DNA of 4,976 nt, from IMG/VR virus record IMGVR_UViG_2585427766_000004; one strand, written 5' to 3'. The DNA comes from a virus (Duplodnaviria; Heunggongvirae; Uroviricota; Caudoviricetes). The notes beneath the pieces were generated by a model. That model searched no databases and was not told where the DNA came from. It was given only the letters and a program-made list of their open reading frames with translations. Below are positions 1 to 4,976 of this stretch, piece after piece. The position numbers and the translations under genes are program-made. The stretch's first letter is position 1, and each line of letters opens with the position of its first letter.

Positions 1-233
1 ATTTGCTCCGCAATAATCTGGCTCTGGTTGTTCGGGTCAACACTCAGAAGATTCAGCGGCGCGATGCGTTTCTGGTTAATCAGTTTTGTCTGTGCCGGGT
101 CTGGTGTCGGCAAGACACCATTCGCATCACCAACGGCCATTTGCGTCAGATTCAGCTTACTGCCAAGCATCGTCGCGTTAGCCAGCCGTGCTGCGCCCTG
201 ATTAGTCAGAATGGCGTAGTATTTCACTGTCAT
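1..233 (-). CDS. H: Tail fiber protein, P2 gpH-like; N-terminal 77 codons only, gene continues past the window edge at position 1
   Basis: Not in the ORF track because it is truncated. The reverse complement of 1..233 reads as an open frame from ATG (233..231): MTVKYYAILTNQGAARLANATMLGSKLNLTQMAVGDANGVLPTPDPAQTKLINQKRIAPLNLLSVDPNNQSQIIAEQ, with no stop. The pattern (G-A-A-[KR]-L-A...M-A-V-G-D) matches the conserved N-terminal region of P2-type tail fibers as I recall it. The ATG overlaps the TGA stop of the upstream gene I (ATGA), and the position after V-W-J-I is the canonical one. Confidence 0.8.
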   Translation of the reverse strand, partial: MTVKYYAILTNQGAARLANATMLGSKLNLTQMAVGDANGVLPTPDPAQTKLINQKRIAPLNLLSVDPNNQSQIIAEQ

Positions 234-838
234 GCGTTTACTCTCAGGTTATCAATTAAATGAATGGCCGAGGCCGGGAAATAATCCCCTCCGACAATAA
301 TGGCCTCCGGGGTGTAGGGATAAACCGTCAGGGCATCGCCGTGATAGCATCCCGTACCAACGAAAATCTTTCCGTTCACACTCAGGCTGATCGCCAGCCC
401 CGTCAGATGGCGACTTACTGGTTTTGCATCCGCAATAAGGCGCTCAAGTTCCTGATACATTTCATCGGTGATGCCCTGATCAAGTACTCCGACAACAATG
501 CGAAATGTTCCTGGCTCCTCGTTGAGTTGCCACCACTCCTTTACTTCAATCAGGTAGCCGAGAGGCTCCACGGCTCTTCGCAGTGCGCTGATGGTCCCTT
601 TGTGTCGGTGTATCAGCCATGCATCACGAATCACCTGTCGCTTTGTCTCTTCCGGCCAGTTGCGATCCCAGCGGTCAACGGAAAATGCCCAGGCGAGATA
701 AGGCAGCAGGTGCACCGGGCAGGTGTCCGGCGACCACAGCGTGTTGAGGTCTACCGGGATGTCTGTAATGCGCGTTCCGACAGCTTCGGCACAACGCATG
801 AAATTGCTGGCTGATGGTGGTAACAGTGAATTACTCAT
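230..838 (-). CDS. I: Baseplate assembly / tail protein I (P2 gpI-like), about 202 aa
   Basis: ORF 230..871 translates to ...MSNSLLPPSASNFMRCAEAVGTRITDIPVDLNTLWSPDTCPVHLLPYLAWAFSVDRWDRNWPEETKRQVIRDAWLIHRHKGTISALRRAVEPLGYLIEVKEWW..., which fits the P2 gpI family. The ORF-track start at 871 is a GTG; I prefer the first ATG at 838, which is preceded by AAGGTGG 8 nt upstream and overlaps the J stop by only 8 nt. Confidence 0.85.
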   Translation of the reverse strand: MSNSLLPPSASNFMRCAEAVGTRITDIPVDLNTLWSPDTCPVHLLPYLAWAFSVDRWDRNWPEETKRQVIRDAWLIHRHKGTISALRRAVEPLGYLIEVKEWWQLNEEPGTFRIVVGVLDQGITDEMYQELERLIADAKPVSRHLTGLAISLSVNGKIFVGTGCYHGDALTVYPYTPEAIIVGGDYFPASAIHLIDNLRVNA

Positions 839-1727
839 TGCGCCCACCTTCGCTGATGGTGAACGACTCACAGCGCGCCGCCTGTATGTCGCTGATGGCC
901 ATATTCTGTGTGGGTTCGATTATCTCCACACGTTGCACACCGTGCACATGCAGTGCGGCAGCAATGGCGGACAACGCCACGTCCTGACCGATAAGCCCCT
1001 GCTCAGCCAGCCACTTCCTGAACGACGATTCCGCCGCAGCCAGAATAGGTTCGGATTCCGGACCGGGGTAAAAGTACAGTTTTGCATTTAGCCGCCATGT
1101 CACGATTCTGGCGCGCTGTACAGTAAGGCGGTCGGCCACCGGGCGGGTATCCTCTGCATTCAGAACGGCGCGAACGGTATTAAGCAACGCCTCCGTTGCT
1201 GTGCCGTCGCCTTCAGTGGACAGGATGGAAACCGTCACATTTGCCGGAGACGGACTGATAGCCCGCGCATCACGCACCAGACCGCTGGCGCTGCGGGCAA
1301 AATACTCGTATGCACCTGACGGGCCAGCAACGCTCAGACCGTCATACGCCCGCTGCGCCCGCAGTCTCAGCGAGGTGTCGCTCTCCATCACCGCGTCGGT
1401 GGTACCCGTTGCCGGAGTGATGGTCAGGCGCTTTGTGTTCATATTGCCCGCGAGATTGTCCAGGTCTGTTCCGGCGCTGTGGCTTAACATGCAGGCGCGT
1501 GCACCCTCATTAACCCGCTGGCGTAACAGCATTTCACGAAAAGACATGGTTTGAGCGATAACGTTCAGGGGTTCCGATTCCAGCTCCAGCGCGGCGGAGA
1601 CGGCTTCACGCTGTTCGGCAGGATAGGACGCAATCATCATGGCCTTTGTGTCAGCCAGAATTGCCTCAAAATCAGGCTTCGCGATGATGGCGGGTTCCGG
1701 TAACTGGGAAAGGTCAACAGCAGGCAT
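831..1727 (-). CDS. J: Baseplate assembly protein J (P2 gpJ-like), 298 aa
   Basis: ATG at 1727 preceded by GAGGGAG. The protein begins MPAVDLSQLPEP and contains ...LELESEPL...RQRVNEGARA...TKRLTITPA...DAVMESDTSLRLRAQ...GLSVAGPSGAYEYFARSASG...SPSPANVTVSILS...TRPVADRLTVQ...LYFYPGPESEPI...GVQRVE..., characteristic of the baseplate J family. Size and position between W and I match P2. Confidence 0.9.
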   Translation of the reverse strand: MPAVDLSQLPEPAIIAKPDFEAILADTKAMMIASYPAEQREAVSAALELESEPLNVIAQTMSFREMLLRQRVNEGARACMLSHSAGTDLDNLAGNMNTKRLTITPATGTTDAVMESDTSLRLRAQRAYDGLSVAGPSGAYEYFARSASGLVRDARAISPSPANVTVSILSTEGDGTATEALLNTVRAVLNAEDTRPVADRLTVQRARIVTWRLNAKLYFYPGPESEPILAAAESSFRKWLAEQGLIGQDVALSAIAAALHVHGVQRVEIIEPTQNMAISDIQAARCESFTISEGGRNE

Positions 1728-1730
1728 GAT

Positions 1731-2081
1731 TTACTCCCTCAGCGTGATGGTTAACTCAACATTCTGCATGGTCTGCATGACAGTGCCCGACAGCGTCACC
1801 CCGGCGCGGCCTCCTGCCTTCCAGACAACGTCGATGGCGTCCAGGGCAATGCGGGGTTCCCATCGTGTCAGCGCAATCACGGCAGCACTCATGCATTGCA
1901 GACGCGTGGTGTTATTCATGGGTTCGTCAATCAAATCAGGTACAAGGCTGCCATATTCCCGTCGCATAACCCGGCTGGCCAGCGGGGTGGTCAGGATGTC
2001 CCTGACTGACTGTTTCAGGTGCTCCGTATCGTTCAGGTTTCCCGTCCCGTCCGGATTCATTCCTGTGTAGCGGGTTGTCAC
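1731..2081 (-). CDS. W: Baseplate wedge protein W (P2 gpW / GPW-gp25 family), 116 aa
   Basis: Protein MTTRYTGMNPDG...LKQSVRDILTTPLASRVMRREYGSLVPDLIDEP...LTRWEPRIALDAIDV...VTLSGTV..., of gpW size and motif pattern. The start is GTG (2081..2079) with AGGAGG 6 nt upstream, and it overlaps the V stop (GTGA). Confidence 0.85.
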   Translation of the reverse strand: MTTRYTGMNPDGTGNLNDTEHLKQSVRDILTTPLASRVMRREYGSLVPDLIDEPMNNTTRLQCMSAAVIALTRWEPRIALDAIDVVWKAGGRAGVTLSGTVMQTMQNVELTITLRE

Positions 2082-2659
2082 TGCGGGCCTCCTGTCGAAT
2101 CGCTGCCACCTTTAACGCCACCGTGCTTATGCGTATGCACTGTGATGCCGTTTGAGGTGAAATCGCCGCCGCTGTGCGTGATATTGCCGCTCATCTTTCC
2201 CCCTTTTGTGACGTCAAGCGTCTCCGTTCTCAGAAGGTTTGTGCATTCCACGACGGGCGTGTCCAGTTTCACGCTGACGGATGCCTGTAAAGTGGCCGTT
2301 TTTATGCCGCTGGCGCTCAGTGCGCCTGCGTCCGCGTCGTAGCGGAACACCGCGCCGTCCGGCGCGCTGATCACGATTTCTTTCAGGCTTTTGCCGGGGG
2401 CCGGACTGGCATCACTCCACAGGCTGCCAATTATCATGGCGGTTTCCGGGTTGCCGCCAATGCAGGCAATTACTACCTGTTCGCCTAGTGATGGCGGCAG
2501 CCACACATTGAAGGCTCCCGCGCGCGTGGTGTTCCAGCGCAGCCAGCCTGTTTCCAGTTCGCCGCTGCGAACGCGCACGCGCCAGGACTTCTCATCAACT
2601 TCAGAGATGATCCCGGTGCGGATGATATTGCTCAGCAGTCGCATGAGTTCTGCGCTCAC
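2078..2659 (-). CDS. V: Baseplate central spike / assembly protein V (P2 gpV-like), 193 aa
   Basis: Protein ...NIIRTGIISEVD...GELETGWLRWNTTRAGAFNVWLPPSLGEQVVI...ISAPDGAVFRYDADAGALSASGIKTATLQAS...LDTPVVECTNLL...KGGKMSGNITHSGGDFTSNGITVHTHKHGG... matches the gpV fold description, including the C-terminal HxH tip. The start is GTG (2659..2657) with GGAGG 7 nt upstream, overlapping the S stop (GTGA). Confidence 0.9.
   Translation of the reverse strand: MSAELMRLLSNIIRTGIISEVDEKSWRVRVRSGELETGWLRWNTTRAGAFNVWLPPSLGEQVVIACIGGNPETAMIIGSLWSDASPAPGKSLKEIVISAPDGAVFRYDADAGALSASGIKTATLQASVSVKLDTPVVECTNLLRTETLDVTKGGKMSGNITHSGGDFTSNGITVHTHKHGGVKGGSDSTGGPQ
2088..2093 (-). promoter_or_regulatory. Shine-Dalgarno (AGGAGG) for gene W, embedded in the 3' end of V
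   Basis: Minus strand reads ACAGGAGGCCCGCA-GTG, with a 6-nt spacer to the GTG start at 2081. Confidence 0.5.
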
Positions 2660-3291
2660 CGTACAGCCTCCGCAATCCGGCCCAGCACCGTGTTATAAAT
2701 CAGGCGCTCATCTGCCTGGCTGATACCCAACAGCTCACGTACCGGGTAATCGGTGAAAATGCCCGGCGCAACCTGATCGCGCTCACCGAACTGATGAACG
2801 CGTGCAATACGTGCGGCCACGCCGCTGTAACCTACCGTCACACCGGAGGCATCTGCACGGGCTTTCAGGTAGCGGGCGGTGCGCAGTTTTACGAACATGG
2901 GGACGCGCTTTGTGCTGTCCTGGTTGATGCGCCGGGTGCGTATTTCCAGAAAACGGTCGATGTCATCCCGGTAAAACGTGCGGATATTGTTTTTATCCTC
3001 ATCCCACCCGGTGATGGTTCGCCCGTATTTCCCCGTGTCGTGATGCCAGTTTTTCAGCGTGCGTGCTTCGTTATTCCAGATAAAGCGAATGCGTTCCTGT
3101 ATCCGGGTTACGCGGCGTCTGCGTGGTGTCCACGCGGTCCCGTCCGGCGCTTTCTGTGACCGGATACGCGCCTGCTGGGCGCGGCGTAAATCCTGTGCCA
3201 GCTTTCTGGCGATGTTATTGATGGCCTGCTGATTCAGGCTGTCGCGGATGGCCTCAAAGGTTTCATCCACGCGGGTGAATGCCTTATCCAT
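2656..3291 (-). CDS. S: Tail completion / virion morphogenesis protein S-like (Phage_tail_S family), about 211 aa, apparently expanded
   Basis: Contains RIRSQKAPDGTAWTPRRRR near the N-terminus and GYSGVAARIARVHQFGERDQVAPG...YPVRELLGISQADERL near the C-terminus, which I recognise as the two conserved blocks of gpS-type proteins. It sits in the S position between R and V. The first ATG is at 3291 (8-nt overlap with the R stop); a GTG at 3300 is the alternative start. Confidence 0.75.
   Translation of the reverse strand: MDKAFTRVDETFEAIRDSLNQQAINNIARKLAQDLRRAQQARIRSQKAPDGTAWTPRRRRVTRIQERIRFIWNNEARTLKNWHHDTGKYGRTITGWDEDKNNIRTFYRDDIDRFLEIRTRRINQDSTKRVPMFVKLRTARYLKARADASGVTVGYSGVAARIARVHQFGERDQVAPGIFTDYPVRELLGISQADERLIYNTVLGRIAEAVR
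2667..2671 (-). promoter_or_regulatory. Shine-Dalgarno (GGAGG) for gene V, embedded in the 3' end of S
   Basis: Minus strand reads GCGGAGGCTGTACG-GTG, with a 7-nt spacer to the GTG start at 2659. Confidence 0.5.
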
Positions 3292-3751
3292 CGCTTTCAC
3301 CCCACGTCACATCCTGGAATACATGCGACCAGTCGCCTTCGGAAGATGGCAGGCGGGGTTTTGGCTCCGGCAGGTGTTCTGCCTGCGGTGTGCCCTGACT
3401 GTTGCGCGTGATGCGAACGCGTTCCCGCAGGGGGAGCGTAAACAGGAGATCGGCGCTGTCATCGTCATTGATAACGGCGGAGAATTTGATGTCCTGATTA
3501 CGCTCAGGGTTGAGCAACAACTGTGGCTGATTTTCGGATAACCACGCCAGCAGCGGCAGCGTGAGGTCGTCCAGCTCTCCGGCGTAATCCATGACAAACA
3601 TCACCATCTGATAGCGGTAAACAAACGAGGGCGTTTCCCCGGTCGTTTCAATGTTGCCGCTCTCCACGAAAATGGTGAATTTCTCGGGATTAGCCTGGCA
3701 CCACCGACACCCATGAAGCATGGACTCTCGCAGACTGTTTGTCTTAAACAT
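3284..3751 (-). CDS. R: Tail completion protein R-like (P2 gpR family), 155 aa
   Basis: ATG at 3751 with AGGAG 10 nt upstream (GGAGAG leaves an 8-nt spacer). The protein MFKTNSLRESML...NPEKFTIFVESGNIET...DYAGELDDLTLPLLAWLSENQPQLL... matches the gpR pattern as I recall it (LR..L...NP..IFV.NG.I...D..G..D.L..P.LAWL.ENQP). It is exactly gpR length and in the R position upstream of S. Confidence 0.75.
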   Translation of the reverse strand: MFKTNSLRESMLHGCRWCQANPEKFTIFVESGNIETTGETPSFVYRYQMVMFVMDYAGELDDLTLPLLAWLSENQPQLLLNPERNQDIKFSAVINDDDSADLLFTLPLRERVRITRNSQGTPQAEHLPEPKPRLPSSEGDWSHVFQDVTWGESDG

Positions 3752-3761
3752 CTGTTTTGCT

Positions 3762-3766
3762 CTCCT
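3762..3766 (-). promoter_or_regulatory. Shine-Dalgarno (AGGAG) for gene R in the 23-nt nanS-R intergenic spacer
   Basis: Minus-strand sequence between the nanS stop and the R ATG reads AGGAAGAGCAGGAGAGCAAAACAG-ATG. Confidence 0.5.
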
Positions 3767-3774
3767 GCTCTTCC

Positions 3775-4976
3775 TTATGCTGCGGGATTATTGATTTCCA
3801 GCACCAGGCTGCCGATATCGACGCCATACGTTGCATTTTTGGTAATATCCGTCAGCGTCAGCGCATTCAGCCCCAGTGTCAGACTGTCTTTTATGACCTG
3901 GAATGCCGGGCCAGCCACTCCATTCAGTTTCGGAGTAACCGTGGCACTGCCGGCGGTGAACACCAGCTCCAGCGTCTGCCAGTCGTTACTGTAATTCCCG
4001 AACTCGCCCAACTTTGTGTTTCCGGCTTTCTTGTGATGCATCAGATTCAGTTTGCCGTCTGTGGTCTGGGTGAAGAACGACATCAGGAACGGGTTACCAG
4101 TCCCGGTCATCGCCACGACGTCAGGTAACGCTACATCGGTATACAGATAAATTCCCAGACCGAACTGGTTGTTGGTCAGTGCGCCTGACAGTCGAAACTT
4201 ACAGCTCAGTCTGCCACCCCGTGTCAGCAGGGAGACTGCGTCATCCACCGGATGCATCAGGGACCAGGTTTTATTGCTCTGCTTGGTAACCTTAAACACA
4301 CCATCTTCCAGCGCAACACTGCCGCCGGTGATGGTCCAGCCCTGCGCAGCAGCCTCTCCGGCTGTCGGCAGCAGGGAGACTGTACGAACGGATGTGTCAC
4401 CATCAGACGGCCCCGATGGAGTGTCGCCGCCGGGCGAGGGTTTAATCTCCGGTGCGGTACCGCTGATGAAGGCGCTGGTTCGACCAACTGCGTTCAGAAT
4501 AGCGGTTGCCAGGCGATCCGAAATAATGCCCCTGCGCGCCCATGAACTGAAATGTGTCGGACGATTTGACGATACCCAATTACCATTACTACGGGATTGC
4601 GCGCCGTAATAACCTGCATCAGCAATATCCGGGTCTTCTGCCGGTAAGTTGGTGGGCGTGTTGTTGCCGTTACCGTCGGTCATGAACGGCACAAAGAAAA
4701 CGTTGTCGCTCTCCCTGTTTTTGTACGCGCCGTAGACGGAGTCATACTGTGTGCCGTATGTGTTTTTCCAGTAATACGTCGTGTCGCCACAAATCCACGG
4801 TACAACTGCAGCACTGCCGCCATGGCACTGCGCGTTAAATCCGGAAAGGTCAGTACGGAACTGCTTCAGCATGGCCGTGAACAGGTCCGGTTGCTGTGCG
4901 TAGGTGGCAGCGCTCATGTCAAATTCGCCCTGCATCCAGCACACCGCCAGCAACACATTTTTCGGGTTCTTCTGTA
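3775..4976 (-). CDS. nanS: NanS-type sialate (9-O-acetyl-N-acetylneuraminate) O-acetylesterase, prophage NanS-p-like; 5'-truncated by the window edge; C-terminal part of the SASA esterase domain plus a linker and a roughly 200-aa C-terminal domain
   Basis: The frame is open to the window edge; the ORF-track start at 4956 is only a GTG, and in-frame codons continue upstream (QKNPKNV...). Translation shows motifs shared with E. coli NanS/YjhS: CWMQGEFD, PWICGDTTYYWK, YGAYKN, NLPAEDPD, GYYGAQSRS, HFSSWARRGIISDR. This is followed by a P/G/S/D-rich linker and about 200 further residues. TAA stop at 3775..3777. Confidence 0.8.
   Translation of the reverse strand, partial: QKNPKNVLLAVCWMQGEFDMSAATYAQQPDLFTAMLKQFRTDLSGFNAQCHGGSAAVVPWICGDTTYYWKNTYGTQYDSVYGAYKNRESDNVFFVPFMTDGNGNNTPTNLPAEDPDIADAGYYGAQSRSNGNWVSSNRPTHFSSWARRGIISDRLATAILNAVGRTSAFISGTAPEIKPSPGGDTPSGPSDGDTSVRTVSLLPTAGEAAAQGWTITGGSVALEDGVFKVTKQSNKTWSLMHPVDDAVSLLTRGGRLSCKFRLSGALTNNQFGLGIYLYTDVALPDVVAMTGTGNPFLMSFFTQTTDGKLNLMHHKKAGNTKLGEFGNYSNDWQTLELVFTAGSATVTPKLNGVAGPAFQVIKDSLTLGLNALTLTDITKNATYGVDIGSLVLEINNPAA

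Follow-up and report, generated by a model that had tools for sequence, protein, structure and literature searches.

A sialate O-acetylesterase gene of NanS-p type placed between lysC (spanin) and the tail gene R in P88-like (P2-family) prophages of Escherichia coli

Our analysis of a 4,976-nucleotide stretch of viral DNA (IMG/VR record IMGVR_UViG_2585427766_000004, class Caudoviricetes; "the window" below always means this whole stretch) was focused on a minus-strand gene that enters from the window end and stops just ahead of a set of P2-type tail genes. By homology this gene is firmly classed as a NanS-p-type esterase of the SASA family. In our view it is most probably the 3' two thirds of a full-length nanS-p, held as a fixed and translationally coupled late-operon gene between the spanin gene lysC and the tail completion gene R of a P88-like prophage. 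To our knowledge, NanS-p esterases have been discussed almost only as accessories of Shiga-toxin (Stx) and other lambdoid prophages of enterohemorrhagic E. coli (EHEC). In the literature searched, with several key NanS-p papers lying outside its coverage, no paper on nanS-p in a P2-like phage was found; the same search gave no match for DUF6645, and for DUF1737 and Xuanwuvirus nothing relevant as judged by title or abstract.

The esterase frame stays open for 399 codons, from position 4974 to the TAA stop at 3777-3775, and its translation contains all five motifs named in a first-pass annotation of the window (CWMQGEFD, PWICGDTTYYWK, NLPAEDPD, GYYG and RRGIISDR). Many E. coli chromosomes match the entire window at 97.8% identity, and in them the esterase is complete at 626 aa; of the 399 codons shared with the window, 8 differ in the full-length copy of E. 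coli TOE17 and likewise 8 in the O104:H4 copy. A Pfam search with the window fragment alone yielded no SASA match, the sole match being DUF6645 (E=1.2e-19). In the full-length TOE17 copy Pfam recognizes DUF1737 (residues 4-53, E=3.3e-7), SASA (75-271, E=5e-13) and DUF6645 (477-587, E=1.9e-19); the DUF1737 match, in the part outside the window, scores 30.5 bits versus a cut-off of 24 and represents a divergent subtype. The same copy aligns with the E. coli NanS structure 3PT5 over residues 69-388 (E=3e-123), window residues 228-388 falling within this alignment, and with phi24B NanS-p's C-terminal domain (6YP6) over residues 431-623 (E=3e-30). Its serine motif, LAGQSNAM (GQSN), occupies a position outside the window, as the first-pass annotation had supposed. 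The original call of a NanS-like, SASA-family esterase is thus borne out by the structural alignment and by the SASA domain of a near-identical full-length copy. PHROG 143, a family without assigned function, matches the protein over its whole length. None of the NCBIfam models matches it, hence its RefSeq label "DUF6645 domain-containing protein". The features of the esterase gene and of its 3' border are as follows.

3775-4976, minus strand: NanS-p-type sialate O-acetylesterase, 3' two thirds (residues 228-626 of 626); open frame, exits the window end
4492-4974, minus strand: C-terminal part of the SASA/NanS-homologous catalytic domain (full-length residues 228-388), by alignment to 3PT5 through residue 388
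4918-4938, minus strand: WMQGEFD motif, conserved in the NanS alignment
4552-4554, minus strand: CAT codon for the histidine of RPTHFSS, which aligns with chain residue 312 of 3PT5
3787-4365, minus strand: C-terminal lectin-like jelly-roll domain (DUF6645), by homology to 6YP6; Pfam DUF6645 at fragment residues 250-360, that is, window 3895-4227
3821-3855, minus strand: tract without any difference from a lambdoid nanS-p allele (that of E. coli Esc14); 8 codons (7 synonymous, 1 non-synonymous) differ in the TOE17 and O104:H4 alleles
3775-3820, minus strand: P2-context-specific last ~15 codons and stop, where similarity to lambdoid alleles breaks down in the alignment and the identity profile
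3752-3774, minus strand: 23-nt spacer between the esterase and R, with an AGGAG Shine-Dalgarno sequence for R 10 nt before its ATG; too short for a promoter or terminator

Compared with the chromosomal NanS (YjhS), the catalytic domain aligns over 320 residues with conservation of the GQSN serine, the QGE motif and the xxHFSS histidine. We take WMQGEFD to be SGNH/SASA block III (our own assignment rather than a tool result) and the RPTHFSS histidine to be the catalytic His301 of NanS. The 337-residue chain of 3PT5 is essentially one catalytic domain, with no counterpart of DUF1737 or of the lectin-like C-terminal domain. These additional domains are shared with the lambdoid NanS-p proteins (933W z1466/L0105, phi24B vb_24B_21/gp84 and the "yjhS" product of Stx1 phage), which have the same DUF1737, SASA and lectin-like C-terminal architecture; identity to the "yjhS" allele of an Stx1a-converting phage reaches 81% over the whole protein. 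The interdomain linkers are Ser/Pro-rich (ISPDSP; KPSPGGDTPSGPS), but the SSP motif known from phi24B is missing from them. At the N-terminus, which is formed by a DUF1737 helix, the first 40 residues (maximal 10-residue Kyte-Doolittle mean 1.35) revealed no obvious signal peptide or other export signal.

The host element is a P88-like (Xuanwuvirus, P2 family) E. coli prophage. The RefSeq annotation of three full prophages gives the order portal and terminase, scaffold O, P2-family major capsid protein (MCP), M, L, X, holin, M15 endolysin, LysB (DUF2570), LysC, esterase, R, S, V, W, J, I, H; phage P88 shows this arrangement minus the esterase. The window itself displays a late structural operon of P2-like (Peduoviridae) type, with the order R-S-V-W-J-I-H and Pfam domains in all six complete genes, and the P2-family major capsid gene lies upstream of the tail genes in the full prophages. 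The ATG of the esterase overlaps the lysC stop (ATGA). Its own stop stands 23 nt before R, exactly as originally noted, and its guanine-plus-cytosine (GC) content of 0.52-0.60 is like that of the adjoining genes. Promoter-like and terminator-like sites occur at or below the shuffle expectation (by consensus scans, which weak signals could escape). Because of the ATGA overlap, the 23-nt spacer and scans that do not rise above shuffled sequence, the gene is best described as embedded in the late operon rather than as an autonomous moron: no promoter or terminator belonging to it was detected, though it shows the other feature of a moron, being present in some prophages and absent at the same site in close relatives. 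Accordingly, of the earlier proposal of a metabolic moron co-transcribed with tail genes, the embedding in the late operon holds and the moron in the strict sense does not. Extension upstream, recommended in the first-pass annotation for the window and made here in full-length homologues, revealed DUF1737 and GQSN within the protein and the lysis cassette (holin, endolysin, LysB/LysC) ahead of it. Since LysB and LysC are still present, the esterase was added after them rather than in their place, contrary to the earlier placement in the slot of the P2 lysis accessory genes. A replacement of lysA/lysB by the esterase was likewise rejected, the lysis genes being retained in the annotated prophages.

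This arrangement is common in sequenced E. coli, and the gene belongs to a known family. A 601-nt probe spanning the boundary of R and the esterase, counted at a coverage of at least 80%, was found in 375 of 5426 complete E. coli genomes. The empty P88-type junction was present in 689 of them, so that the esterase form makes up about one third of the P88-like prophages. The supposition that the context is unusual is thereby overturned, on the very ground (a common arrangement in P2-like prophages) that had been named as fatal to its novelty. Twelve copies were sampled; 11 of them encode an intact protein of 625-626 aa, and the remaining one has a frameshift. The sampled carriers include O104:H4 str. 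2009EL-2050, human faecal and urine isolates, and bovine and veal isolates; the exact O104:H4 allele, whose UniRef name is YjhS, occurs on 269 contigs of a large protein collection. This allele, which has the accession AFS56983.1 and in strain 2009EL-2050 the RefSeq accession WP_000202135.1, may be among the five NanS-p enzymes that Saile et al. tested in 2018.

In a collection of 50,697 phage records, 347 have a NanS-like core, and nearly all of these are Stx/lambdoid phages; the P2-type N-domain appears in only three P2-family records, two of them partial. One record of this collection is a P88-like prophage, from an ST131 host. A scan of one genome per species detected only E. albertii and an Escherichia sp., plus two weaker matches, in Proteus faecis and a Bacillota metagenome-assembled genome, that are confined to the esterase core (58% identity, no N-domain).

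The comparison with P88 and other Xuanwuvirus members (Peduoviridae) suggests how the gene reached its place. The tail and baseplate genes of the window share 95-97% nucleotide identity and the same order with these phages, which have no esterase; in P88 the corresponding lysB-R stretch, containing the end of lysC, is 137 nt long. Besides the esterase itself, three differences from P88 were found: the last ~17 codons of lysC, the 23-nt spacer and the first ~14 codons of R. Since the lysC tail and the R head (the latter being part of the esterase cassette) are homologous to their P88 versions but diverged, the cassette appears to have spread between P2-like genomes by homologous recombination in the flanking genes, as opposed to insertion into the P88 intergenic region. 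A repeat search yielded chance-level short repeats only, none of them prominent at the 3' junction of the cassette in the window. In the Rz1-like spanin LysC the last ~17 residues are wholly different in the two forms, the protein ending in …AELDKRIAELTHQTGVTQ in esterase prophages (record L003, 14652-14700) and in …ELLEQRRLQRLNNEDNNHAEN in P88 (record L002, ~9340-9400). The lysC stop lies 13 nt inside R in P88 and overlaps the esterase ATG in the esterase form.

The gene itself is a mosaic with respect to lambdoid nanS-p. Nucleotide identity to lambdoid alleles is ~50% over the N-domain and linker (first ~210 nt). A 60-100% patchwork, including runs of several hundred nt at 97-100%, extends across the SASA and C-terminal domains, and at the extreme 3' end the similarity is lost. 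In the window this last breakpoint lies near 3820; from there to the stop and beyond, the DNA follows P2-specific sequence, and the 3821-3855 tract adjoining it marks recombination with the lambdoid allele pool. These profiles show an exchange of catalytic and C-terminal modules with lambdoid alleles around a P2-specific N-domain. The mosaic junction between lambdoid and P2 modules envisaged in the first-pass annotation was therefore a correct idea at the level of gene segments.

The N-domain DNA of the P88-like allele was found in 376 genomes, and among the matches listed all 14 carry a P2-context protein name, 12 of them also listing the adjoining lysC. A HMMER scan of 1.84 billion representative proteins identified only four relatives of the N-domain, and a word-indexed protein search returned only truncated or frameshifted fragments. 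Following the four relatives through IMG/VR and E. coli genomes led to two further P2-family prophage lineages (NCTC9112, and IMG/VR records L026-L032), in which an esterase with a P2-type DUF1737 occupies the same slot after the spanin genes (LysB/LysC) and before R-S-V-W-J-I. These lineages are well separated from the P88-like one (62% identity in the MCP and 55-57% in R; GH24 lysozyme in place of the M15 endolysin), and their esterase C-terminal domains are 32-35% identical to the P88-like domain. A megablast search of the phage collection with the second P2 lineage gave no match. In NCTC9112 (record L059, 11237-11401) a 54-aa membrane-like DUF1378 protein is encoded between the esterase and R, and it is 50% identical to vb_24B_23, the product of the gene after nanS-p in phi24B (record L013, 17851-18030). 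This resemblance indicates that the esterase-DUF1378 pair is common to lambdoid and P2-like phages. The lineage of the window does not have the DUF1378 gene.

Over the first 52 residues the proteins sort into two clades. Members of the P2-type clade, from three diverged P2-family lineages, share 58-96% identity and those of the lambdoid clade 61-96%, versus 25-42% between the clades. The SASA core does not follow this split: that of the P88-like protein is 88% identical to the Stx1 phage allele versus 67-71% to the other P2 lineages. Two P88-type alleles differ in the folded N-domain by 10 synonymous and 3 conservative non-synonymous substitutions, the linker being hypervariable; by this measure the N-domain is under purifying selection. 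The P2-type N-domain keeps a TPW/Y-LMQA segment, the counterpart of the anchor loop reported in phi24B.

The position of the P88-like gene resembles that of lambdoid nanS-p in that both belong to a late operon and adjoin the lysis cassette. In contrast to its lambdoid counterparts, which lie between stx/Q and the holin gene, it resides in a P2-family myovirus, follows the lysis genes, directly precedes the tail genes and is translationally coupled to lysC; the small DUF1378 gene downstream of nanS-p in phi24B is missing. The lambdoid NanS-p enzymes are active esterases on 5-N-acetyl-9-O-acetylneuraminic acid (Neu5,9Ac2), their lysogens grow on O-acetylated sialic acid, and upon induction z1466 (nanS-p) ranks among the late genes with the strongest upregulation (reviewed in PMC8065619; PMC5923452). 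By analogy, the P88-like esterase gene would be transcribed only when the late operon fires after induction, along with the capsid, lysis and tail-completion genes, and phage lysis would set the enzyme free. We propose this late expression and lysis-dependent release because the protein shows no obvious export signal and its gene stands immediately after the lysis cassette. Once released, the enzyme would presumably strip 9-O-acetyl groups from mucin sialic acids, and surviving sibling lysogens could then use the deacetylated N-acetylneuraminic acid (Neu5Ac), in the way reported for lambdoid NanS-p. In addition, some of the protein may ride on the phage head via DUF1737.

Several points weigh against placing a functional nanS-p in the late operon in this way. 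The function of the window allele is a prediction from homology, its first 227 codons lie outside the window, and the frameshifted copy noted above, from strain M1/5 (record L001, 12775-14654), belongs to the same group. The natural substrate might lie elsewhere than in host mucin, O-acetylated glycans on bacterial surfaces being one example. Finally, the P2 late-promoter motif TGT-N12-ACA is absent from the window, an uninformative negative, since the motif is likewise missing where the capsid promoter of a full prophage would be expected.

The most substantial alternative (or complement) to release at lysis is that the P2-type DUF1737 docks the esterase, or a processed remnant of it, on the capsid hexons of P2-family particles. 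Its basis is a 2026 preprint, in which the phi24B NanS-p, gp84, is a processed capsid decoration protein whose DUF1737 binds facet-centre hexons as a hexamer, the binding being restricted to the flat facet-centre hexons of the T=9 capsid (bioRxiv 10.64898/2026.04.10.717836). Taken with this capsid-binding role, an N-domain clade that is specific for phage type and selectively maintained makes head display on P2-like particles a serious contender. The same direction is indicated by the N-domain DNA with its P2 context in all 14 matches listed, by the conserved fold next to a hypervariable linker, by the retained anchor-loop segment, and by the placement of the gene amid structural genes, with those of the capsid preceding it and those of the tail following it. 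A head-borne esterase with its lectin domain could aid adhesion to or movement in mucus, or strip O-acetyl groups from surface glycans before adsorption, so that the phage would be the main beneficiary. On the other hand, P2 heads have T=7 geometry and no flat facet-centre hexon of the kind to which docking is confined in phi24B. The clade pattern may also be non-functional, if recombination is possible only where sequences are similar and leaves the divergent N-domain untouched, and P88 and the 689 empty-site genomes assemble the same type of head without any esterase. In the TOE17 prophage, which carries the esterase, the MCP is 94% identical to that of P88 (record L003, 17555-18607, vs record L002, 12256-13308), compared to 98.9% for the scaffold and 99.4% for the head completion protein; this divergence could reflect chance mosaicism or esterase docking, and is confounded by linkage, the capsid gene lying ~3 kb away. 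Overall, a virion-associated enzyme, ranked in the first-pass annotation as the less likely possibility, has gained weight from the phi24B capsid binding and the separate P2 clade and still remains a minority expectation. We are equally tentative about its generalized form, in which DUF1737 would be a capsid-type-specific docking module and the esterase a head-displayed enzyme of P2-like myoviruses, with catalytic and lectin modules freely swapped with lambdoid phages.

Two other explanations carry less weight. A classical moron, that is, an autonomous lysogenic-conversion gene transcribed from its own promoter in the prophage state and providing the lysogen with constitutive esterase activity, would agree with the usual discussion of lambdoid nanS-p genes as lysogen fitness factors (PMC8065619) and with a weak sigma-70-like site (9 of 12 matches) located just upstream of the esterase ATG, inside lysC. 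Nevertheless, we consider it improbable in view of the start codon overlapping the lysC stop, the 23 nt left before R, promoter-like and terminator-like sites no more numerous than in shuffled sequence, a GC content like that of the neighbours and no apparent export signal. Even the frameshift in one of the 12 sampled copies, together with an internal stop in gene S of strain OkiPb01713 (record L016, 5365-6000), a sign of prophage decay, gives hardly any credence to a decaying passenger (a remnant pseudogene) or to a chimera made by joining lambdoid with P2-like contigs: the other 11 sampled copies are intact, all 399 codons of the window are open, and the differences between alleles are mostly synonymous. 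As for an assembly chimera, raised as a possibility in the first-pass annotation, the same junction in 375 complete genomes led us to reject it. The interpretation we favour continues to be that of a full-length nanS-p fixed in the late operon between lysC and R.

The remaining part of the window is occupied by the tail genes; all genuine genes of the window are on the minus strand.

1-233, minus strand: tail fibre gene H, first 77 codons, by PHROG tail fibre families (best E=3.3e-52) and RefSeq annotation; the gene extends past the window start
230-871, minus strand: tail protein I, Pfam Tail_P2_I (E=4.2e-53); the RefSeq start corresponds to window 838
831-1727, minus strand: baseplate gene J, Pfam Baseplate_J (E=6.3e-19)
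1731-2081, minus strand: baseplate wedge gene W (gp25-like), Pfam GPW_gp25 (E=9.8e-14)
2078-2659, minus strand: baseplate spike gene V, Pfam Phage_base_V, Phage_spike and Apex
2656-3300, minus strand: virion morphogenesis / tail completion gene S, Pfam Phage_tail_S (E=8.3e-28); PHROG 26
3284-3751, minus strand: tail completion gene R, full-length Pfam P2_Phage_GpR match (E=1.7e-38); similarity to P88 stops at 3709

Some additional observations were made on these genes. Phage_tail_S (148 positions) matches the S protein (211-214 aa) as two disjoint segments, a pattern suggestive of an insertion within S that the model lacks, and PHROG 36427, a family of 367 positions, spans R and S as though they were fused. 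Similarity to P88 and most Xuanwuvirus genomes begins at ~395, phage 500465-2 being the only one to match from position 1. For this reason the 3' portion of gene I, together with the beginning of the tail fibre gene H, is regarded as a separate mosaic segment. Downstream of the window, a recombinase/DNA invertase gene adjoins alternative tail fibre and assembly genes, some of them partial (record L001, 5705-7502; record L003, 5482-7629), and the region looks like an invertible host-range segment. The plus-strand open reading frames at 260-814, 723-1091 and 1639-2070 (122-184 aa) are antisense to Pfam-confirmed tail genes and most likely are frame artefacts of coding sequence with 55-60% GC. 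An Rfam scan of the window gave no match.

Overall, a P2-family prophage with nanS-p is present in ~7% of complete E. coli genomes, the gene being intact in nearly all sampled copies and concealed under a domain-of-unknown-function label, and surveys of nanS-p that proceed by lambdoid context or by annotation name would undercount these copies. The finding that the N-domain tracks the type of phage as the enzyme modules are exchanged offers a testable handle on the claim that DUF1737 is a capsid anchor. If head display is true, what was observed for phi24B, a single T=9 podovirus, would hold for another capsid lineage unrelated to it. If DUF1737 is indeed a docking module, NanS-p would be a modular "dock plus enzyme" system of phage decoration rather than a nutrient gene of the lysogen. 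And if P2-like heads do carry the esterase, the accepted account of NanS-p as a "public-good nutrient enzyme" would need revision.

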